A stretch of DNA of 64,000 bases from an uncultured Eubacteriales bacterium (GCA_949031345.1 CARNVA010000008.1:7661-71660), one strand, 5' to 3'. Positions 3,473 to 39,723 are shown, counted from the first letter of the stretch. Notes: a model not told the origin generated them from the sequence alone. Numbers and translations are program-made.

Positions 3473-5414
3473 ATGAAAAAAAACAACAAAATGGATAATT
3501 GGCGGTGCTGTAGTATTATTACTAAGCACTGGCTTGACTTTAGGTCATGTTTTTAGACACGAAATAAAAGATTGGGTTAAAGGTTTTCAATCGTCCAAGC
3601 CAAACCCAAGCCCTGTAGATCCTAAGCCACCTATTCAACTTACTTGCTTGGTTTCAGTTGAAATTCACCGCCCTGACGGTGTTGAAAAAGAAAGTCAAGA
3701 GGTAGAAACTGGATATGAGCTGGAACTTCCTGATACTAATGCCATGGATGAAATTGAAGGTTATATTGCACGCTACTTTTATGTTACTGGATCGGGCTAT
3801 AACAACAGAAAATTACTTGGCGGACAAACTATCACCATTACAAGCGACACAAAAATTACTGTAGCTTATGAAAAAATTATCACAATTGCCTTTGACGTTG
3901 ACGGCAATATAGAATTTCAAGAAGTGATTGAAGGAGACTCCCCTTTTTGGAGAACACCTTCAAAAGTCGGCATGAACTTTGATGGCTGGACTTTGGACGG
4001 AGAAAATGTAATTGACTTATCAAAATATAAAGTAACAGAGTTTGTTACGTTTATCGCAAAATTTTCTTATAAATATTACACTGTTGAATTTGTTCTTAGT
4101 GACACAATGAGATTAAGCTGTAATTATCGCAGCGATAATCAAGTTTATGTTCCAGCGCCTCTTCAAATTGAAGGCAAAGATTGCCTGGGCTGGACTAAAG
4201 ATGGTGAGAATGTCTTTGATTTTAATAAAGTTATTACTGAAGATACCGTCTTCCACCCTTTATATGCCGATCAATCATTTGATGAAACGCTCCCTTTTGC
4301 AATAGAAAATGGTGAAATTACTGGTTATTCTGGGAACGAATCAAATGTTGTAATTCCATCCTCCTATTCTGTCGACAGTCGCGGCAATATAATCGAAGGA
4401 AATGATTATCAAATTGTTAAAATAAGAGATTTTGCGTTTAGAGATTCAAACATGGTTTCTGTTGAAATTATGCCTGGCGTAATTTCAATTGGTGACCAAG
4501 CTTTCTATAATTGCCTTAATCTTGAAAGAGTTATAATCCATGAAGGTTTGACTAGTCTTGGAGATTTAGCATTTGCTGAGTGTGATAATTTAATTTCTAT
4601 AGAACTACCATCTACTATCAATGAATTAAATGGATTTACTTTTTCTGAAATCGACAATTTGCAAAATATTCAAATTTCCGAAGATAACCCTTCTTATAAA
4701 AGTGAAGGCTCAGTTATTCTTACAAAAGATGGCTCACATTTAGTTTTTGCAACAAAAGATGCAGTCATTCCAGAGTCAGTCATTGTAATTGACAATTATG
4801 CTTATGTCTATTCTAAAGTTAAAGAACTAGTTTTGCCGGATTGTGTAACGACAATTGAAGAAAATGCTTTTATGGGATGCAGCGAGCTTACTTCATTAAC
4901 CTTGTCTGCAAACTTACAATTTGATTGGCAATCACAATGCTTTTTGCAAAACTTGGATAAATTTGAAAAACTTGTGATTAAAAATAAAATAGAGAATGCC
5001 TCAAATTTAATCCATGTTCAGTCATTTCAACCTAGAACAAGCTTAATCAATGTCTACGTTCCAGATGAATATTTAGAAGATTATATCAATGCATTCATGT
5101 ATTCTTCACCAATTGTTGTCAATACACTCTCTTCTTTAGAAACTGGCGAAACTCCAACAAAACATGCCGTTTTGTTTAGATATCCTTCAACAGCTGAATA
5201 TTTAGACAATTACAATTGTGCTGATGGTAAAATTTGTGAAACAGGCGACAAGGTTGGCTATAACCACACCGCTCAACTTGAAGGTTATAGATTCTTGCAT
5301 TGGGTAAAGCAAGACCCATTGACAATGGAAGAGGTTGAAGTTGTTGAAGATATTGAGAATTATTTAATTACAGAAAATACTATTTTTAAAGCAATATTTA
5401 GCCCAATTATATAA
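3473..5414 (+). CDS. LRR / Listeria-Bacteroides-repeat protein, candidate adsorption protein; reading frame broken at an A8 tract after the start codon
   Basis: GGAGG lies 8 nt before ATG 3473. In the sequence as given, ATG plus A8 (3476..3483) runs into a stop after 27 codons. With A7 it reads MKKTTKWIIGGAVVLLLSTGLTLGHVF..., a classic signal anchor continuous with ORF 3534..5414. The body has 'FDGWTLDGENV' and 'CLGWTKDGENVF' repeats and BspA-type LRRs. Confidence 0.7.
3476..3483 (+). repeat. A8 homopolymer at codons 2-4 of the LRR protein gene
   Basis: Counted directly as eight consecutive A. Tract length decides whether ATG 3473 is in frame with the 626-aa ORF. Confidence 0.9.
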
Positions 5415-14270: not shown

Positions 14271-16415
14271 TTATAAATTCTTATCGTTATCGTTAAAATA
14301 TGATTGAAACATTTTCGCAATCGTATCTTTCGAATAACCAAATTTCTTTTCTCTGTCTTTTTCAAGTTTTCTTTCTTCTTCTAAAAAGGTCGTGGTATTT
14401 TTAAATCTTTCCATCATCTGAGAAGCCTTGTCATCATAATTTTTCTTTTCCTCTTCATCAATCTGATTGATTAAGATAGCACGCTCATCATCATTTTCTA
14501 TCCATAAGCTGTCAAATACTTCTAGGTTTTCTCTTCCTAAATGCACCTTTACAAATTCGCGTACCTTCTTTACTCCCTTCTCGTCCACGCACTTAAAGCT
14601 GCATGTAAGAGCATATTTCTCGGTCTGTTTGCTTGGCAGCGCTTTCAAATCCACTTGGTCTGACAATATATCTTCTATTGTTATTCGTGGTAGTGATGCA
14701 AATTTGATAAGGGCTATCGCGTTTGACTCGCCTATCTTATCTGCCAGCATCTTTATTCGAAGCTCTCCTTTATTTGCATATATGATATTCGAAACCTGTT
14801 CCCAGCCGCGTGGGTCGATTGCAAATTTTGGTGGGTTTTCTGTGTCATACTTTGTATAGAACGCATTCTTATCATTTGCTGCTACAAAGGCTGCTACTAG
14901 TGGGTGTATCTTAGTTTTACCGTCTGGTCTTTTCTCGCTTCCCCACTCCAAGAAGTCTTTTATATCTGGTTTAAGCTCGATATGTGCTTCAAAGCGGCGG
15001 AATAGTGGCTCTGGCATATTGTAGGCAGCTTCGCTCTCTTCTGGGCTATTTCCTGCTGCAATCACCACACAATTGTCTGGCAGTTTGCCTATATTTCCGT
15101 CTATCGACCTTGACAATACCAGGTGAAACACCAGTGACTGCTCGTTTGGTCTGACATTTGTAAGCTCATCTATGAATAACACATGATTGTGCTCTGGGTC
15201 TTTTTGGCAGACCTCTTTTATTCTTGTATACCAAGTTGGCTCTATCCAAAATGATTGTCTACCTTCTGTGCCCGTCTTTCCTGTTATCTCTTCTGGCAGC
15301 ATTCCATTTCTTAGTTGCAAGCATACGCAGTCTGGGTCAAGCTCTTGCACTCTCCTTGTCTTTCCTACTCCGCTTGGCCCATGCAGCATGAAGCTTATAC
15401 CTTCATCTATGTAAAACCTCATCTGCTCTTTTACTGACAGTGGCGTGTTGTTGATGCTTACGCCATAAGGGTTTGGGCGAGGCTTTGTTTCTTGCTTTTC
15501 CTCTTCTTCATCATCTTCATCTGAATAGTTAAGCTCTGCGTTCATGTCTGCCTCTTCCAAAAATCCACAACCTTTAGAATTATAAAGACGAGTTGGGGCA
15601 TCAGCCTCATTTCCATTACCCTTATTAAGTTCTTCCTCTAAATCATAGCCATTAAGATAAATACGAGGCAATGAATTTTGCCATTGCACTTCATTGTTGC
15701 GATGATAAAAAGGAACGCCTGATAAAATTCCCTTTTTGCTTCTTACTAACATCGTTTCATTTTCATCTTTTTCTATTAAAAACTCAATAGGCTCTACCTT
15801 AAACCAGTAATGTTCACCTTTATTAAAGTCGATATCACCCTCAAACGTCACCTTGCCTTTACATGTGCTTGATTTGTCCGCTCTGACCCTTACATATTTG
15901 TTGCCTTTGTATTCATACTCAAAGTTGTCTTGCAAAACGCTATCAAGTCCAGCTATATATCTTCCGCTGTAAACCCTGCCTGTAGCATTCAGCTTTCCAT
16001 CTTGATAAGCATCTTCGATTTCAGCCGAGTTTAATGCGTAAGACTGCGGGAAAACAAAATCATCAAAGGAAATGGTCTAATAATTGCCATAATTTATCAC
16101 ATTGTGATTTTTTGGAAGCTTCTTTTTGTCAAGCAACATGCTTGGAAAAATAGCATTTCTTTTGCAGGTAGATTCACAACAATATTCATTTCCTTCACTG
16201 AAACATAAGGCATCGTCATATTTTATATTTCTGATTGCAGCGTCGCATTCATTGCTGGCATTGATATCTGCACCGCAGGCGATTGCATAGTCGGTTGGCT
16301 TAAGCGGCATGAATGAATATTTCTCAAAATATTGAAAAGTATCAAAAAAAACAAGGTCTTTTGTACCACATTCAAGTTCCATCGGAATAATACAATTTTT
16401 AAAAAGTTGTGCCAT
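14271..16415 (-). pseudogene. DUF6273-like / MoxR-type AAA+ fusion, paralogue 1, interrupted by one in-frame TAG (16077-16079)
   Basis: ORFs 16077..16415 and 14271..15935 share a frame and are separated only by a TAG. The 47 codons between them have no stop. They read TISFDDFVFPQS..., homologous to paralogue 3 (TISFSKLTFPQR). The reconstructed length of about 714 aa matches the paralogues (714 and 692 aa). Confidence 0.7.
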
Positions 16416-33299: not shown

Positions 33300-34106
33300 T
33301 TATAAATCAGTGTTTTTCTCTTCTTCAACAAGCTTAACATTCTTTTTGTCAAGCAAAATTCTTTTGCCATCCAAAAGACACTTTTTGCCGTCATCACAAA
33401 TTCTTTCAAGACTTCCATCTTTGATTTTATAAGCAAGGCCATAAAGCTCTGCCTTATTTTCATCAAGTAATATATAACTTCCTTGAGGAAGGGCGATAAA
33501 TTCGCGACCCTTGCTGTCTGGAATATAGCATTCTTCAAGCAAGTTGAAACTGCAAAAATTAAATTCATTTCCATTGTCAAGATTGAAATGCGGAATAATT
33601 ACAAGCTCATAAAGCCCAATTCCATCAAGCCATCTTTCAAGCTTAACTTCTGTGTCATCTTCTGGATATTGATAGACCTCTTTACCAAGATTCATTGCCC
33701 CAGCGCTCTTTCCAACCACTACAGCAGATGAATTTTCTAAAAGCTTTGAAAACTTAATATCTTTCAAAAACTCAAGTTGGTCGCCAAGTTTTCCGCCCTG
33801 CAAATATATCAAATCGGCCTTTTCAATCAATGTTTTTGCCTGACTTTTATTTTTATTATTCAAAAGAGACATTTTCTTGAAAGGCATACCGCTTTTTTGC
33901 AGCCCTTCAAAGATAAATCTGGCACTTTCAAAATCATATAAACTCTCGTTTGGTGTATTGCAAATAAAAACAAAATTATCGCATTTTGACAAGCTGTTTT
34001 TTAAGTTTTTCGCAAAGCTGTTGTGCCTGTCCACCTTGCAACCAATTTTCACACCTTCTTTATTTCTTAAACTGATTAAGCTTTCACTAAGTAAAAATAA
34101 TTTCAT
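33300..34106 (-). CDS. S51 peptidase family protein (dipeptidase E-like)
   Basis: Motifs are IYLQGG and the nucleophile motif VVGKSAGAM. Confidence 0.7.
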   Translation of the reverse strand: MKLFLLSESLISLRNKEGVKIGCKVDRHNSFAKNLKNSLSKCDNFVFICNTPNESLYDFESARFIFEGLQKSGMPFKKMSLLNNKNKSQAKTLIEKADLIYLQGGKLGDQLEFLKDIKFSKLLENSSAVVVGKSAGAMNLGKEVYQYPEDDTEVKLERWLDGIGLYELVIIPHFNLDNGNEFNFCSFNLLEECYIPDSKGREFIALPQGSYILLDENKAELYGLAYKIKDGSLERICDDGKKCLLDGKRILLDKKNVKLVEEEKNTDL

Positions 34107-34120
34107 TCTTTCTCCTAATT

Positions 34121-35233
34121 TTAAACCATATCATCTGGCAATTTTTTTGCAAATGAATAGTTTGAATAAGCTTTGTCGTCAGTGACCTCTCTTATCACCT
34201 TAATAAAGCTTGGCATTTCAATTTTTTCGTCCTCACTTGCAAGCTCGATTTCCATAATCGCATTTTTTTCTGCAAAAGGATAGATATCAATCTCAAAATA
34301 TTTTCCATCTTGCATGAGACAATATCTGTCTTTGCGAACGGGTTTCAAATTGGTATCTGCACTTTCAAGGTAGGTAAGATATTGCTTTTGTGTAATTCTC
34401 TTTTCAAACTCCACCCTCTTAATAGGCGAAATTTTTCTTTTTGTCGTATGTGTGTAAATATAATTCCCATCAAGCCCGCGTTGTCTAACCCTAGTCTCAT
34501 CACCCTTAGGTGAAATCAAATAGGTCTGAATAATGCTTACTTTCTTGCAGTTTGGAAGAGCTTCAAGCTTTTCAAGGTCAGGCTTTTCAATTAAAAATTT
34601 CCTTTCAATTTCAAAAGGTGTAGGCTCGCCAAGCAATGCACATATTTCCTTTATAAGCCTGTTTATCTTGCCTTCAAAATCGGTTGAGTTGTCAATAACT
34701 CTAAAATGCGGATGTCCTGTCCAACAAGCAATTGTGCGGTCATCAATTTCGATTGCCTCTTGCGCAGTCTCTCTTCTTGCCGCGTTGTTTGCAAGGCTGT
34801 AACTTTCTTCAGCACCCTTAGCGCAAGTTACAAGGTGGAAAACTCCGTCATAATCATCTCTTAAAGGAATAAATTCCTTGCCTTCATCCTTTAAAATCTT
34901 ATGAAAAGATGCTTCGTCCAAATATGCAAGCCCATCCATCAATCCTCGATCGCAAACGATTAAAACCTTCTCATCAGGAAGACTTTTGCAACTTTCTTCA
35001 TAGAGTTTTTCTTTGAGAAGCTGAAGCTTGACAATAGGCTTTTGAAATAAACAAGCGTCATAGTTGAACGCTGGCAGTGAAAGCCCATTAAGCGAAAGCT
35101 CTGTTGCAGATTCATTTATGATAACAACTTTATATCCAAGTTTGCTCATCTCGCGCTCAATACAACTAAGCCCTGTTGACTTTCCACCACAAGAGCCTCC
35201 TGTAAGCACAATTTTGTATATTTTCTGGCTCAT
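34121..35233 (-). CDS. P-loop kinase-like (AAA_28/NadR-type) domain fused to a CYTH domain
   Basis: Walker A is LTGGSCGGKST. The CYTH signature EIERKFLI (ExExK) lies at about residue 207. Confidence 0.75.
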   Translation of the reverse strand: MSQKIYKIVLTGGSCGGKSTGLSCIEREMSKLGYKVVIINESATELSLNGLSLPAFNYDACLFQKPIVKLQLLKEKLYEESCKSLPDEKVLIVCDRGLMDGLAYLDEASFHKILKDEGKEFIPLRDDYDGVFHLVTCAKGAEESYSLANNAARRETAQEAIEIDDRTIACWTGHPHFRVIDNSTDFEGKINRLIKEICALLGEPTPFEIERKFLIEKPDLEKLEALPNCKKVSIIQTYLISPKGDETRVRQRGLDGNYIYTHTTKRKISPIKRVEFEKRITQKQYLTYLESADTNLKPVRKDRYCLMQDGKYFEIDIYPFAEKNAIMEIELASEDEKIEMPSFIKVIREVTDDKAYSNYSFAKKLPDDMV

Positions 35234-35555
35234 ATTTTCCTCTTTAATTATATTTATCTTTATTTTTATTGTTTAACTTGATTTTTCTGTCTTTATTTTA
35301 TTTTTAATTTCTCTTATTAAACTTTATTTGTAAGTTTATTTAATTTCTTTATTTATTCTTTCTTATTAAAATTTGATTTTTTATCTTATAAATTTTCTTT
35401 AAACTTTCAGTTTTGATATTGCAAAGCCGTCTTTTTCAGCCTAATTTTTTCAATTTAATCAAATTTTAGAAATTGCTTGAGTCAAATTCTACTCAAGCAA
35501 TCTCACATTAAAAAGTTAGTTTGACTTTTTCTTGCACGAAAACTAAGTTTTTCGC

Positions 35556-37814
35556 TTACATTTCATAGTCATCTTCATATTCATCAAACAAATTTTGCTG
35601 AGGTTTAACAGGTCTGCTTTGATTGCCATTTCCTGCAGTTTTTTGTTGAGAGCTTAAAGTTTGACTTGAAGCTTTATCAGTAAGCATACTCAATTGTCCG
35701 CCTTTTCGCACCTCGGCACTCTTGACATGAATGACTTTTCCGTCGCTGTATCTAAAGTTTGGATTGTCAAAAACTACGAAAATTATTTTCAGATTTTTAT
35801 AGTCACCATTTGGAAAACCATATCCGTCATAACCATCAGTGAAAACAATTCTGTTCACCTTTTTATCTTTTGAGAAAGCACGACAAGCACTATCAATACA
35901 TGTTCCACCACGGCCAACAAATCTGTAAGAGTCAATGTCTTTTGTCTTTTTAATCTCGGTAAAACCATGAAAAGTGTTATCAAAGCAGCCGATTTTAAGT
36001 TTTATATCTCTCGACTCACTGTCTTTGTATGCGTCTTTCAAAAGAGCTTTAACCTGTCTTAAGAAGCCTCTTAAAAGCTCATCATCAATACTTCCGCTGG
36101 TGTCAAGAATGACTTCAGTGGCTGGCTGATCATAATTTTGACGACTTTCAATTCTTGGCATATAGTAGTTGTCGCGACTAGAACGACGATAACTCCACAC
36201 AGAATCAACTTTTTCAAACTCATTTTTCAAGAGTTTCTTCCATGAAACTGCTGCCTTTGCTTCGCCAACTTCTCCAAACGCACCTTCGCCGCTGTCGCTT
36301 CCTTGCCCTCCAGCTTTGACTCTGTCACCAATTCTTTTGCGAATTTCTTCAGCAAGCTTTCTTTTCATATCCTTGTTCATGCTTTGAAATTCTTTTTCAA
36401 GCGCATCATAATCTACATCTTCATCAGCGTTATTTTGATTTTGCTGAGGGCTGTTGCCCTTATCATGTTTTTGTTGCTCGTTTGCTTTTTTATCTTTTTC
36501 AAACTCTTCTTTCTTTTCTTTTCGACTTTGATCAAGTTCTTTTCTGAATTTATCTTCAGCACTTTCCTCGCCGTTTTCATCATTTTCATCTTGGTCTTGA
36601 TTGTCTTGATCTTTGTCTTTATCTTTATTCTTTTCTTTCTTCTTTTGTTCTTCTTCCTTCTTCTTCTCGTATTTCTCTAAAGCCTTTTTCCATCCGTCGT
36701 GGTTTTGAGGTTGTTGTGGAAGAGGTTGATCTTGCTGTCTTTGGTCGCCTTGTCCCTGATTGTAATCTTCCTGTTGTTGCTGTTGACCATTGGCACCGCC
36801 ACCTTGACCTTGTTGGTTATTTTGTCCTTGCTGTTGCTGGTTTTGACCGTTTTGACCACTGCCGCCCTGTCCATGCTGTTGTTGTCCATTCTTCTGGTCG
36901 CTTTGTCCACCATTCTGTCCGCCTTGTGATTTTTGATTGCCATTTTGTCCACTTTGACCGCCGCCTTGACCACCGCCAGATTGACCTTGTTGTGAATTTC
37001 CATCGCTTTGCTGTTGACCTTGCTGGCCATGGCCACCGCCTTGACCTTGCTGATTTTGTTGTTGTCCCTGTTGTCCTTGACCGCTAGACTGTTGTTGCTG
37101 TTGTTTTCCACTGTTGAGGTCTTGCTCGCCTTTTCCATCTTTACTAGATGGGCCATTTTGTTGATTTTGGCCACCTTGACCGCCAGACTGTTGTTGATTT
37201 TGGCCGCCTTGGCTTCCACCTTGACCTTGTTGGTTTTGCTGAGATTGACCTTGCCCGCTTTGTTGTTGCTGGTTTTGACCATTTTGTTGTTGATTATGCT
37301 GAGGGTTTCCCTGTTGACCTTGACCACCAGACTGTTGCTGTTGTTGCCCATTTCTTGCTTGTTGTTGCTGAGCCTGTTGCTGCATTTTGTCATAAACAAC
37401 TTTATACATATCTTCTGCAGATTTGTCTTTCGCTTCTGGCATATCTACCAAACCGTCAGGAAGTTTCAAACCTTCACTGCGTATGATTTCATTGATTACG
37501 GCGTCGGTCGCTATGTTCCAAGCACCCATATCTCTTTCAGTGCCGTCTTTGGCTCTAAGTCTTGGAATATGATTGAAGGCAACATGCATGACTTCATGTG
37601 TCATAATTCCCACTTTTTCATCAAATGAAAGAGAATCCATAAATTGAGGTTCGAAATAAACATTTTCATGGTCTGTCATAGCAGTGCCAACGCCTTTTGC
37701 ATATTTCATATCAAGACCTGACACAGTTGTTCCGAGAGAAGGAAACTTTCTAAGCATTGCCTTTTTTAAATCTTCAAGTTCTTTCTTTCTGTCGTTTTTG
37801 TCAAAGAGTCCCAT
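35556..37814 (-). CDS. HExxH metallopeptidase-domain / VWA-domain protein (DUF2201-type) with a roughly 330-aa disordered insert
   Basis: HEVMHVAFNH lies at residues 73-82. The MIDAS motif is VILDTSGS at about residues 568-575, and RIVFTDGY lies near the C-terminus. Residues about 144-371 are almost only Q/G/N/S. Residues about 375-470 are K/E/D-rich. Confidence 0.85.
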   Translation of the reverse strand: MGLFDKNDRKKELEDLKKAMLRKFPSLGTTVSGLDMKYAKGVGTAMTDHENVYFEPQFMDSLSFDEKVGIMTHEVMHVAFNHIPRLRAKDGTERDMGAWNIATDAVINEIIRSEGLKLPDGLVDMPEAKDKSAEDMYKVVYDKMQQQAQQQQARNGQQQQQSGGQGQQGNPQHNQQQNGQNQQQQSGQGQSQQNQQGQGGSQGGQNQQQSGGQGGQNQQNGPSSKDGKGEQDLNSGKQQQQQSSGQGQQGQQQNQQGQGGGHGQQGQQQSDGNSQQGQSGGGQGGGQSGQNGNQKSQGGQNGGQSDQKNGQQQHGQGGSGQNGQNQQQQGQNNQQGQGGGANGQQQQQEDYNQGQGDQRQQDQPLPQQPQNHDGWKKALEKYEKKKEEEQKKKEKNKDKDKDQDNQDQDENDENGEESAEDKFRKELDQSRKEKKEEFEKDKKANEQQKHDKGNSPQQNQNNADEDVDYDALEKEFQSMNKDMKRKLAEEIRKRIGDRVKAGGQGSDSGEGAFGEVGEAKAAVSWKKLLKNEFEKVDSVWSYRRSSRDNYYMPRIESRQNYDQPATEVILDTSGSIDDELLRGFLRQVKALLKDAYKDSESRDIKLKIGCFDNTFHGFTEIKKTKDIDSYRFVGRGGTCIDSACRAFSKDKKVNRIVFTDGYDGYGFPNGDYKNLKIIFVVFDNPNFRYSDGKVIHVKSAEVRKGGQLSMLTDKASSQTLSSQQKTAGNGNQSRPVKPQQNLFDEYEDDYEM
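36702..37385 (-). repeat. low-complexity Q/G/N/S-coding region (about 230 codons) inside the peptidase-VWA gene
   Basis: Runs such as QQQQQSGGQGQQG and GQGGGHGQQGQQQ. The DNA is a degenerate CAA/CAG/GGN repeat, which creates long spurious ORFs on both strands. Confidence 0.9.
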
Positions 37815-37862
37815 AATTATACCACCTTTAAGTCATGCACACAAAAGTGCCTGCATGATGAT

Positions 37863-38282
37863 TTATTCTTCCACTTTGTAATAAAGTGAAAGAGAAAGTA
37901 TTTCTCTATTTATTTTAGCACGATTTCCATCATTTATCAAGATGGCAATTTGCATATTTTCAGGTAATTTAAAGCCATTCAACGATTTTCCGTCCAAAAT
38001 GCCCTTAAATTTCAACTGCTCATCCTCCGAAATAGTGTCAAGCCCTTCAATAAGCAATAAATTAGCCTTAGCATTTTTTCGTGCTTCAACTGATTTAACC
38101 CAGTCTGGCATTTTAAGACCACCGATGTCATTGATTACTCCAAGACTTGCAGAAGGCACTGTCGCAGGAAGCACTGTCGCACTTAAGAAGTCCTCCTTTT
38201 TCACGCCGCCTTCAATGATGACCGGCCAGCTTTTATTATTTTTTAAAAGTTCGTTGAGTTTTCTCTTCATATTATTATCCAC
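37863..38282 (-). CDS. degenerate (catalytically dead) mini-AAA+ paralogue (139 aa)
   Basis: It aligns with the core of the three AAA+ paralogues. PVIIEGGVKKEDF replaces LHGPSGVGKTRRV, LLLIEGLDTISEDEQ replaces LFIDELTNVxxNEQ, and KLPENMQIAILIN matches KLPxNCVVxAAGN. The arginine-finger RRF is lost. Confidence 0.7.
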   Translation of the reverse strand: MDNNMKRKLNELLKNNKSWPVIIEGGVKKEDFLSATVLPATVPSASLGVINDIGGLKMPDWVKSVEARKNAKANLLLIEGLDTISEDEQLKFKGILDGKSLNGFKLPENMQIAILINDGNRAKINREILSLSLYYKVEE

Positions 38283-38442
38283 AATTGCCTCCCTAAAATA
38301 AATATCTTAAAAGATATTTCATCATAAAAATGATAACATAAAAAAAGCAAAATGTCAAAATATATTCAAAACATTCTGCTCTTGTAAAAAATCAAAATTT
38401 AAGTGGTATTTCTTTTTGTCCACTGCTGTAAAAAATCAAAAG

Positions 38443-39723
38443 TTATGGGGTGATTCTTTCAGGGCCGCGGAAGATAAACATTGCTTCTTTGATGTTTGCA
38501 AGCTCTAAAAGATTCATAAGCATGCGGTCAAGACCGATTGCAAATCCGCCGTGTGGAGGGCAGCCATATTTGAAGAATTGGAGATAAAATTCAACATCCT
38601 TTTCAAGCCCTTTTTCAGCCGCTTGTGCCTTAAGCACATCATATCTGTGCTCTCTTTGCGCGCCAGTAGTGATTTCTACGCCCTTCCAAATAAGGTCATA
38701 ACCCTGTGGAACGCCATCTTTTCTGAGGTGATAGAATGCACGCTTGCTTGCGCCATAATCAGTTACGAACAAAAATTCATGGCCATAAACTTCTTGCGCA
38801 AACTGTCTGCAAAGCCTTTCAGCTTCTGTTGCAAGATCGTCTTTTTCTTCTTCTGTGGTGAAGCCATAACGCTGTTCAAGCTGCTTATAAAGCTCAGCAA
38901 GTTTAATTCTTGGGAATGGTAAACTTGGCACAACCACCTCTACGCCAAAAGTTTCTTTAATTTCTTCACCATATTTTTCTTTAACCTGCCCAAGCGCATA
39001 GGCAAGCATTTCCTCTTCAAGCTTCATCACATCTTCATAGCTTTCAATCCAAGAAAATTCAAGGTCAAAGCTGGTAAATTCAGTCGCATGCTTTTTTGAA
39101 TGAGACTTTTCTGCGCGGAACACAGGCGCAACTTCATAAACTCTTCCAAAACCACTTGAATTTGCCATCTGCTTGTAAAATTGAGGACTTTGTGCAAGAT
39201 AAGCAAGCCCATCAAAATATTTCACCTCAAAGACCTCAGAGCCACTTTCAGAAGCGGTTGCAATAAGTTTTGGTGAGTGAATTTCAACAAAGTCACGCTC
39301 GTTTAAATACTCTCTCATTGCATTGTTTAAAAGAGTTTGCACCTTAAAAGCAAGCAAGTTTTTATCTTGCCTAAGGTCAAGCCAGCGATAGTCAAGCCTC
39401 TGGTCAATGTTGCTTTCTGGTCCAATAGGATAAGCCTCTGCTGTGCTGGTAACTTCCACCTTGTCAGCCAAGACCTCCCTTCCGCCAAGCTTAACATATT
39501 CGCTTTTTACAAGCTGACCTTCCACCAAAACAGTAGAGCCAGCAAGAAGATGAGAAAACACCTCTCCCACCTCAGGATAAGCCACCTTATCAACTGTGAC
39601 TTGAATTTTTCCAGAAAAGTCCTTAAGCACGATAAACTGAATGTTTTTCTTGTCTCTTACCACTTCAATCATGCCTTGAAAACGCACTCTTCCTTCCTGT
39701 AATTTTGAAATTTGTGTTGTCAT
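38443..39723 (-). CDS. aspS: aspartyl-tRNA synthetase, archaeal/eukaryote-like type 2
   Basis: About 426 aa. Class II motifs with LAQSPQFYKQM and VAPVFRAE, and GGFAIGLDRMLM at the C-terminus. ATG 39723 lies behind GAGGAGG. The track start at 39774 reads through the T-box terminator. Confidence 0.85.
   Translation of the reverse strand: MTTQISKLQEGRVRFQGMIEVVRDKKNIQFIVLKDFSGKIQVTVDKVAYPEVGEVFSHLLAGSTVLVEGQLVKSEYVKLGGREVLADKVEVTSTAEAYPIGPESNIDQRLDYRWLDLRQDKNLLAFKVQTLLNNAMREYLNERDFVEIHSPKLIATASESGSEVFEVKYFDGLAYLAQSPQFYKQMANSSGFGRVYEVAPVFRAEKSHSKKHATEFTSFDLEFSWIESYEDVMKLEEEMLAYALGQVKEKYGEEIKETFGVEVVVPSLPFPRIKLAELYKQLEQRYGFTTEEEKDDLATEAERLCRQFAQEVYGHEFLFVTDYGASKRAFYHLRKDGVPQGYDLIWKGVEITTGAQREHRYDVLKAQAAEKGLEKDVEFYLQFFKYGCPPHGGFAIGLDRMLMNLLELANIKEAMFIFRGPERITP

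Follow-up and report, generated by a model that had tools for sequence, protein, structure and literature searches.

The two-gene locus and its products

In a 64,000-nt stretch of DNA from an uncultured Eubacteriales bacterium (GCA_949031345.1 CARNVA010000008.1:7661-71660; hereafter the window, by whose positions all coordinates are given), we analyzed a locus of two genes, which encode a 139-aa protein resembling the core of AAA+ ATPases (hereafter the small protein) and a 752-aa DUF2201 protein, in which a zincin-like metallopeptidase domain and a domain of the von Willebrand factor type A kind (VWA) are joined by a long low-complexity linker (Table 1). The initial annotation of this DNA had treated the two genes as a pair, and a two-gene unit, with a 48-nt spacer, is supported; the two open reading frames (ORFs), the 7-bp hairpin in the spacer and the TTGACA-17-TATCAT promoter that it had described were all recovered. 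The predicted promoter lies 5' of the small gene and 3' of aspS, and its score of 11/12 makes it the top consensus match within 35300-38500. A 14-bp hairpin 3' of the DUF2201 stop codon is the probable terminator of the unit, which was left uncalled in the consensus scan because its U-tract is weak. A regulatory role of the intergenic hairpin was considered and dropped, as its fold is no stronger than that of shuffled sequences (z -0.5, i.e., not exceptional) and is kept only in a near-identical relative (L001), the spacers of the other relatives being mostly ≤10 nt; this hairpin is probably incidental. In addition, a second, weaker promoter-like site (10/12), which falls within the small gene at its 3' end, could permit independent expression of the DUF2201 gene.

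The relation of the small protein to AAA+ ATPases became visible through its own family profile and through fold comparison. When it was searched by tblastn against the window, nothing was found, its relation to the ATPase paralogues encoded there being undetected by BLAST; Pfam, NCBIfam, PADLOC and PHROGs gave no match to it; and PDB sequence profiles, searched with family alignments of 10 and 124 sequences, returned chance-level matches only (homoserine kinase, uS13). The first homologue search identified 10 close homologues, and an exhaustive profile search extended the family to about 205 representative clusters at 50% identity, nearly all of them 120-140 aa in length. A hidden Markov model (HMM) built from 124 members, no ATPase among them, matches the three large ATPases of the window (hmmsearch E 4e-9 to 5e-8) and 53 large ATPases of other genomes, always in the same core register, in which profile positions ~51-119 fall on the PxW/Walker B/sensor-1 stretch of the AAA core. 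The two families align by hhalign with E 2.5e-4 over 62 columns, and the reciprocal HMM of the large ATPases matches small proteins at two related loci (L010 and L021). The check that the initial annotation had set for itself, i.e., whether profile searches relate the 139-aa protein to AAA+ cores, therefore has a divided answer, negative for the generic libraries and positive for the family's own profile and the fold.

The AlphaFold model of the small protein (predicted local distance difference test, pLDDT, 91; predicted template modeling score, pTM, 0.85) is closest in the PDB to NorQ, with and without the VWA domain of NorD, other AAA+ proteins coming next, and its closest viral models are dynein-related, MoxR-like and CobS-like/AAA_5 phage ATPases (TM-score up to 0.74). 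Of the PDB matches listed, the top 50 are without exception AAA+ proteins, as are most of the leading viral ones, and no non-AAA fold occurs among them (TMq 0.5-0.74). Strands beta1-beta5, the beta-hairpin inserts and helices alpha2-alpha4 are retained in the model; the P-loop, helix alpha1 and the C-terminal lid are missing, and the chain stops after beta5. In the alignment with the paralogues, the P-loop GPSGVGKT is replaced by EGGVKKED, and GK[ST] is found at this position in none of 135 family members. Walker B is changed from IDEL to IEGL (LLLIEGLD in the window protein) with loss of the Walker-B Glu, the first acidic position in the family being D, E, K or N and the second N, G or D. These two changes stand as first annotated. 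The replacement of the arginine-finger motif RRF by SLS (family consensus S-L), which had been claimed alongside them, is suggested by a positional match in the model, at helix alpha4 and strand beta5, and not by unambiguous alignment.

The 139-aa protein is thus, as had been proposed, a truncated, catalytically dead paralogue of the AAA_5/MoxR-like alpha/beta core, and it is under purifying selection (dN/dS of 0.09-0.17 against relatives). As the P-loop is missing family-wide, the Walker-B Glu and the arginine finger are lost, and dN/dS is low, we regard it as a selected pseudo-enzyme and not as a decaying fragment. The family as a whole is an unannotated, lid-less and P-loop-less AAA+ core of ~130 aa, and fusions of a dead AAA module, a linker and a VWA domain were absent from the best 150 of its 205 matches, all of which are ≤195 aa.

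Both terminal domains that the initial annotation had recognized in the DUF2201 protein, the N-terminal peptidase-like domain with HEVMH and the C-terminal VWA domain with DTSGS in its metal ion-dependent adhesion site (MIDAS), are confirmed by Pfam, by invariant residues and, for the latter, by its fold. DUF2201_N matches aa 11-216 (E 3e-26, 93.1 bits against a cut-off of 23.2), and the VWA-like DUF2201 family matches aa 568-696 (E 1.9e-8, 34.9 bits against 26.4). Among 58 homologues, H73, E74, H77 and H82 (HExxH and a further His), the WNxATD motif and the MIDAS residues D570, S572, S574, T658 and D659 are invariant or nearly so. In the AlphaFold model, a confident N-domain (aa 4-160) is followed by a disordered region (aa 174-361), three long helices (aa 373-500), the VWA domain (aa 509-705) and a disordered tail, and Foldseek assigned the C-domain to the VWA fold, with CLCA1 as the top match and NorD and the MDN1 MIDAS domain also matched. 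The C-termini of the DUF2201 proteins are acidic and aromatic in the window clade (DEYEDDYEM, DEDEFDM and EEDDYYM, in L001, L002, L004-L006, L035 and others) and read E(P/D)EL(S/F)(L/M) in another clade, acidic-hydrophobic endings occurring in several clades; such a tail may, speculatively, serve as a motif by which the protein docks to the ATPase.

The linker (aa 145-371) is composed of 44% Q, 26% G, 10% N and 7% S (87% Q/G/N/S; 54% Q+N), has 7% charged residues, one aromatic and two aliphatic residues and a longest Q run of 5, and precedes a segment (aa 372-480) with 22% K, 18% E and 15% D, in agreement with the earlier description of ~230 residues of Q, G, N and S followed by ~100 of K, E and D. 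Its Q/G part has the peptidase core on one side and a conserved H-D-x-x-W motif on the other. A recent microsatellite or an assembly artefact is ruled out: no DNA tandem repeat was found in the linker-coding DNA, in which CAA/CAG and GGN codons are mixed, and a 752-aa product of identical length, in unchanged synteny, was recovered from two projects in a total of four independent assemblies. In the metagenome-assembled genome (MAG) of the near-identical relative (L001), the protein has 771 aa and differs by several small in-frame indels, all within low-complexity parts. Across 80 related loci chosen without regard to Q content (see below), linker length ranges from near zero to ~430 aa (median ~147 aa; median Q 17%) by a crude motif-based estimate, the shortest DUF2201 proteins having 385-416 aa, and the window linker represents the long, Q-rich extreme of the family. 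Because of this family-wide variation in length, the few aromatic and hydrophobic residues and the 26% Gly, we read the linker, predicted to be disordered, as an expandable tether. Disordered or charged linkers ahead of VWA/MIDAS domains are usual in the partners of AAA_5-class ATPases, such as BchD and midasin.

Table 1. Coordinates of the two-gene locus, the protein segments that it encodes, the ATPase paralogues and other genes of the window
Feature	Position	Strand	Basis or remarks
Small gene, 139-aa pseudo-AAA+ protein	37863..38282	(-)	GTG start, AGGGAGG ahead of start
DUF2201 gene, 752 aa	35556..37814	(-)	ORF calling
Zincin-like metallopeptidase domain, aa 1-160, HEVMHVAFNH	37335..37814	(-)	DUF2201_N, pLDDT >90
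Q/G/N/S low-complexity linker, aa 145-371	36702..37382	(-)	Composition; pLDDT <50 over aa 174-361
K/E/D-rich segment, aa 372-480	36375..36701	(-)	Predicted long helices with disordered breaks; opens with family-conserved H-D-x-x-W
C-terminal VWA domain, aa 509-705	35700..36290	(-)	Complete MIDAS DTSGS...GGT...TDG
Disordered C-terminal tail, ...LFDEYEDDYEM and stop codon	35556..35699	(-)	pLDDT <50
Predicted sigma-70-like promoter, TTGACA-17-TATCAT, extended -10 TG	38330..38358	(-)	Consensus match
Weaker promoter-like site, TTGATA-17-TAAAAT with TG	37912..37940	(-)	
Intergenic hairpin, 7+3 bp, UUUU loop	37833..37858	(-)	-13.2 kcal/mol; ribosome-binding site AAAGGTGG follows
14-bp hairpin, terminator candidate	35469..35504	(-)	-29.9 kcal/mol, z -4.1
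Large AAA paralogue 1, 714 aa	19957..22101	(+)	Intact Walker A/B, sensor 1 and RRF; presumed motor in trans
Large AAA paralogue 2, 692 aa	22497..24575	(+)	Active-type; N-terminal aa 27-101 homologous to the DGR-variable module of relatives
Large AAA paralogue 3	14271..16415	(-)	554-aa ORF 14271..15935 and upstream 112-aa ORF 16077..16415, same frame, one TAG between
Radical-SAM protein, 278 aa	24572..25408	(+)	
AAA_28 NTPase (370 aa) and Peptidase_S51 protein (268 aa)	33300..35233	(-)	3' of the pair
Predicted surface protein, 992 aa	40017..42995	(-)	Two genes 5' of the pair, beyond aspS
DGR, diversity-generating retroelement.

The ATPase paralogues and the cassette in related genomes

Three large AAA paralogues of the small protein are encoded in the window. 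They differ in their N-terminal modules, and two of them keep intact catalytic motifs; their coordinates and motifs confirm the earlier statement that active ATPases are present in trans, 13-23 kb from the pair, the nearest active AAA gene being about 13 kb away. The frame of paralogue 3, ~714 codons in all, is interrupted by a TAG codon at about 16074-16076. Recoding of this TAG was considered and rejected, as TAG serves as an ordinary stop for 6 of the 39 long ORFs of the window, and the interruption therefore reflects readthrough, an error of sequencing or a nonsense mutation that left a pseudogene or a split gene. Pfam found nothing in the N- and C-terminal extensions of the large ATPases, and phmmer found nothing in the PDB with full-length paralogue 2. 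Weak matches to PADLOC DolB (~1e-5) for paralogue 2 and the 554-aa ORF of paralogue 3, and to NCBIfam IteA (0.018) for one ATPase, probably reflect generic AAA similarity. Paralogue 2 and a gene for a radical-SAM protein overlap by 4 nt at the stop codon of the former, and the product of the latter (Pfam Radical_SAM, 4e-16; weak DUF5131; phrog_13321, 9e-56; PADLOC PDC-M41B/PDC-M30B, ~1e-8) may be functionally tied to the ATPase paralogues.

A scan of one genome per GTDB species with the conserved DUF2201 N-domain gave 288 matches, of which the best 80 loci were examined and typed by custom HMMs on six-frame ORFs; all are from uncultured gut MAGs, labelled Clostridia, Christensenella-like, Bacilli/Mollicutes or 'Alphaproteobacteria'. 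At 49 of the 80 loci, a large AAA gene, the small gene and the DUF2201 gene follow one another in this order on one strand, with median gaps of -1 nt (AAA to small) and 4 nt (small to DUF2201). The AAA gene stands directly 5' of the DUF2201 gene at 10 loci (the small gene being elsewhere in the locus in 3 and undetected in 7), the small gene precedes the DUF2201 gene with no adjacent AAA gene at 14 (5 of them with <2.5 kb of upstream sequence), and neither gene is directly 5' at the remaining 7 (4 with <1 kb upstream). The large AAA proteins of these loci (400-1080 aa) belong to the same family as the three paralogues of the window. Just three gene families were broadly conserved when the ORFs of the neighborhoods were clustered (80, 69 and 69 of the 80 loci), and no further conserved partner gene was found in this clustering; hence, the three genes constitute a unit and the flanks are variable.

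An AAA gene is adjacent to the cassette at 59 of the 80 loci, and the window itself is not of this canonical MoxR-VWA type. The split arrangement is common to its nearest relatives, i.e., L001 (95% identity), L003-L006 and L035, and the order of the small and DUF2201 genes is held across the clade at 55-67% identity. No AAA gene was found in the fetched flanks of L001, L004-L006 and L035 (up to 8 kb upstream, with 2.6-8 kb available), nor in L003, for which <2.5 kb of upstream sequence exists. As the small gene is usually positioned between the AAA and DUF2201 genes, the arrangement in the window represents a lineage-specific split of a three-gene cassette: the pseudo-AAA is a regular third subunit, and its detachment from the ATPase genes is confined to a lineage. 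The initial annotation had supposed that an ATPase was locally replaced by a pseudo-enzyme, which is not supported in view of a family of ~205 clusters whose gene accompanies an active AAA gene at most of the loci; as for whether the pair is commonly found without any AAA paralogue, the two normally co-occur.

The neighbors next in frequency to the three cassette genes belong to a retroelement. In about a fifth of the loci (18 of 80), a reverse transcriptase (RT) gene (Pfam RVT_1, 1.8e-20) lies beside the cassette, and at 14 loci a bAvd-like protein was detected (weak, E 3e-4, under the Pfam cut-off). Avd and RT, in this order, are always directly 5' of the large AAA gene on the same strand. 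At 14 loci (L007, L013-L016, L018, L023, L026, L036, L040, L041, L051, L070 and L071), a template repeat (TR) of ~110 nt between Avd and RT recurs as a variable repeat (VR) toward the 5' end of the AAA gene, at ~aa 60-110 (e.g., TR 4135-4244 and VR 5776-5885 in L018), and the mismatches between TR and VR are nearly all at TR adenines (e.g., 16/17, 22/22, 15/15, 19/19 and 18/18), a pattern by which diversity-generating retroelements (DGRs) are recognized. The Avd-TR-RT arrays of these loci are thus DGRs that target the N-terminal module of the ATPase. At four other loci (L020, L034, L045 and L052), the RT ORFs are shortened and a TR could not be detected, so that their DGRs look degenerate. The VR encodes '...W(S/L)(A/R)S...V..V..DG...(A/C)(V/A)RPAL', which by its motif resembles the end of DGR targets of the C-type-lectin type. 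A profile of the DGR-variable module matches paralogue 2 of the window at aa 27-101 (E 6.7e-5) and the 112-aa ORF of paralogue 3 (E 5e-4), and paralogue 1 has, by eye, a similar 'HGVRPKI' ending. In addition, the predicted surface protein encoded beyond aspS, with DUF6273 and Listeria-Bacteroides repeats, has a domain ending in '...GVRPAFHL', like the VRPAL ending of the ATPase heads, which suggests that these heads may derive from a lectin-like fold family shared with it.

Homologues of the cassette proteins are also frequent in phages. The DUF2201 protein matches phrog_1314 (2.8e-60) and the ATPases match phrog_1297 (~1e-36), and tblastn detected homologues in 212 phage records, mostly of N4-like Schitoviridae. 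The phage genes, which encode an ATPase of ~355 aa and a DUF2201 protein of ~390-416 aa with no long linker, are located side by side in the replication module. The N4-like pair therefore shares with the bacterial module a homologous ATPase and zincin/VWA protein from adjacent genes, but its ATPase is without the N-terminal head, its DUF2201 protein is almost without linker, and no small pseudo-AAA was found with it in the two loci checked. The phage DUF2201 gene is often labelled 'HNH endonuclease' in RefSeq (NC_023581.1 14924-16009, NC_070861.1, NC_049467.1), whereas the GenBank versions of the same genes read metallopeptidase or von Willebrand factor type A; the domain content gives the HNH label no support, and it looks like a propagated PHROG mis-annotation.

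Proposed working of the module and alternatives

We interpret the locus as the two ATPase-less subunits of a three-component AAA+/pseudo-AAA+/zincin-VWA module, serving as the shared adaptor and effector set of a MoxR/VWA-type and probably conflict-related sensor machine, and we regard this interpretation as fairly probable. The large ATPase would be ligand sensor and motor ring at once, with a variable head that is retro-mutagenized in some relatives and fixed in the form of paralogues here. By analogy with NorD on NorQ, the VWA/MIDAS domain of the DUF2201 protein may dock on the AAA+ ring, and the small pseudo-AAA would stand between the motor and the VWA protein and serve there, without catalysis, as a ring-like adaptor or regulator, a part reminiscent of the dead N-terminal AAA module of BchD but played by a free subunit. 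ATP-driven remodeling might then control or position the zincin peptidase on its long disordered Q/G and K/E/D tether. In the window, a single small/DUF2201 pair would be shared in trans by the two intact ATPase paralogues and the third one with its interrupting stop codon. The adaptor-like or trans-acting arrangement that had been proposed at the outset is plausible in this light, with active ATPases in trans and a dead core homologous to them, and precedents exist for the docking of VWA domains on MoxR rings and for linker remodeling (PMC13036017, PMC9976466). The biological role is most likely conflict (anti-invader) sensing, which we favor for two reasons, the DGR link and the cassette's mobility; this is the weakest step of the interpretation.

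Several observations weigh against this interpretation. No RT, Avd or TR/VR-like repeat was found in the 64-kb window, so that a DGR was rejected for it and hypervariation is not operating within these 64 kb. That the paralogues of the window work with the pair is suggested by their family membership only. PADLOC has no match for the small or DUF2201 proteins and only the weak DolB matches for the ATPases. The phage copies reside in replication modules, which could indicate a non-defence role. The small gene is missing between the AAA and DUF2201 genes at ~7-10 related loci and was not found in the two phage loci checked, and the small subunit therefore appears dispensable in some settings.

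Comparison with known systems places the module near, and apart from, several MoxR/AAA_5-class machines. In magnesium chelatase (BchI/BchD) and in CobS/CobT, an active AAA+ protein works with a partner in which a long low-complexity linker joins a dead AAA+ module to a C-terminal MIDAS/VWA domain. The set of dead AAA, linker and VWA is common to magnesium chelatase and the present module, and phage CobS-like ATPases are among the fold matches of the small protein; here, however, the dead AAA is a separate, lid-less polypeptide of 139 aa, the VWA protein bears a zincin domain, and there is neither a BchH/CobN-like subunit nor a tetrapyrrole context. Midasin/Rea1 is likewise of the AAA_5 class and has a MIDAS domain that docks on its AAA ring from a long low-complexity, D/E-rich unstructured tether, as reflected in the MDN1 MIDAS fold match, but it is a single giant eukaryotic polypeptide of ribosome biogenesis without peptidase. 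CLCA1 has an HExxH metalloprotease followed by a VWA domain, the latter being the top fold match noted above, but it is secreted, eukaryotic and self-cleaving, with no AAA+ partner and no low-complexity insert, and the resemblance is probably convergent in architecture.

NorQ/NorD, and with it RavA/ViaA and CbbQ/CbbO, resembles the module in the NorQ-like fold of the small protein, in the NorD-like VWA fold of the DUF2201 C-domain and in a partner with a functionally important linker (PMC13036017). In NorQ-NorD, a finger of the VWA domain enters the pore, the C-terminus of the partner contacts the ATPase and the linker is remodeled (PMC13036017). These systems differ in having two components, with no pseudo-AAA, no peptidase on the VWA protein and no variable ATPase head, and no denitrification or other client genes are found near the window locus. 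DGR-linked MoxR-vWA-VMAP ternary conflict systems have been described, in which the variable C-type-lectin domain is C-terminal and usually carried by the vWA protein (PMC7159879, PMC10907252). In the present module, it is the ATPase that carries the VR, close to its N-terminus, the third component is a truncated AAA core instead of VMAP, iSTAND or FtsH, and the hosts are small-genome gut lineages, in contrast to the enrichment of VMAP/MoxR-vWA systems in multicellular bacteria. In a published survey, unclassified DGR targets of candidate-phyla bacteria matched a midasin-type AAA domain, and N-terminal variable regions were rare (PMC5758913). The literature on DUF2201 yielded incidental mentions only, and no description of the small pseudo-AAA, or of a DUF2201 partner in such a role, was found in the publications searched.

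Among the alternatives, the small protein may be an inhibitor or cap, seated on the protomer interface of the ATPase or on the MIDAS face of the VWA domain until a ligand is sensed. Its model keeps the beta-hairpin inserts and the face from Walker B to sensor 1, and neither half of an active site is present; the gene is dispensable in some loci and phages, as would be expected of a regulator; and the tight translational coupling suggests a fixed stoichiometry. As the present data fit the adaptor model equally, we consider the cap possible but on the unlikely side. A housekeeping chaperone or maturation module, which like NorQD, RavA-ViaA and CbbQO would mature a specific cellular complex or insert its cofactor, or process a specific substrate, is a serious rival, although a somewhat unlikely one. 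MoxR-VWA pairs of known function are maturation factors (PMC9976466, PMC13036017), housekeeping genes are found nearby (aspS, a SufBD-family gene and, near the ATPase paralogues, tilS), the cassette is retained in many reduced gut genomes, and the negative PADLOC result also fits this rival. No client gene is evident, given that the flanks are not conserved across loci, and homologues in lytic N4-like phages are frequent. The DGR aimed at the ATPase head at 14 loci is atypical for a dedicated maturation factor, and this targeting implies selection for changing ligand specificity. More speculatively, and with considerable doubt, the conflict-sensor interpretation can be extended to a shared effector hub, in which several sensor ATPases with different ligand-binding heads would plug in trans into one small pseudo-AAA and zincin-VWA pair, making up an anticipatory intracellular 'antigen receptor' of gut bacteria with reduced genomes, with an expanded Q/G linker that would tune reach or make activated complexes cluster.

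The proposal that a MoxR partner was locally replaced by the pseudo-enzyme and that the Q/G/N linker works as a switch, prion-like or phase-separating, is improbable in our judgment. The dead small protein does occupy the place where the ATPase gene would be expected, and the linker, which by composition fits the Q/N-rich, low-charge, ≥60-aa criterion of prion-like domains, is longer than in most homologues and varies in length among close relatives. However, the widespread small family usually shares its cassette with an active ATPase, the polar linkers of the family are of the crudely estimated range given above with a very variable Q content, the window linker is rich in Gly, poor in aromatic and aliphatic residues and has only short Q runs, and AlphaFold predicts plain disorder. 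A prion or condensate role of the linker is thus unsupported, and the prion idea is the weakest of the proposals made for this locus. Finally, the split operon, the lack of a DGR within 64 kb, the in-frame TAG in one ATPase paralogue and the phage homologues might mark a decaying remnant of a formerly DGR-linked mobile or phage-derived cassette no longer working as a unit, but this is very improbable, given that the small gene is under purifying selection, the residues of both the zincin and the MIDAS sites are intact, as are the catalytic motifs of two ATPase paralogues, the order of the pair is kept across the clade, and an identical 752-aa product occurs in four independent samples.

Significance and flanking genes

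Two points stand out, a pseudo-AAA family that had no annotation and an ATPase head that is targeted by DGRs. What is novel is a stand-alone pseudo-AAA subunit in a MoxR/AAA_5-VWA system, of which the window holds a split, DGR-less version. An unannotated family of small proteins is defined as the regular third subunit of a widespread AAA_5/zincin-VWA module of uncultured gut bacteria, and this module is linked to DGRs that mutate the N-terminal head of its own ATPase, N-terminal VRs and AAA+ targets being rare among the DGRs described. If the conflict-sensor interpretation is true, the module would provide a compact and tractable case in which an AAA+ motor and a protease are coupled to programmable sensing of ligands; were the chaperone interpretation true, it would be a new build of the MoxR-VWA machine with a stand-alone, BchD-like dead module. 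In addition, the widespread 'HNH endonuclease' label of the phage homologues is corrected.

The genes for an AAA_28 NTPase and a Peptidase_S51 protein lie 3' of the pair in the window. They are not counted as members of the system because their recurrence is too rare, each of them being found near the cassette at six related loci (e.g., L003 4650-5762; L041 983-1735).

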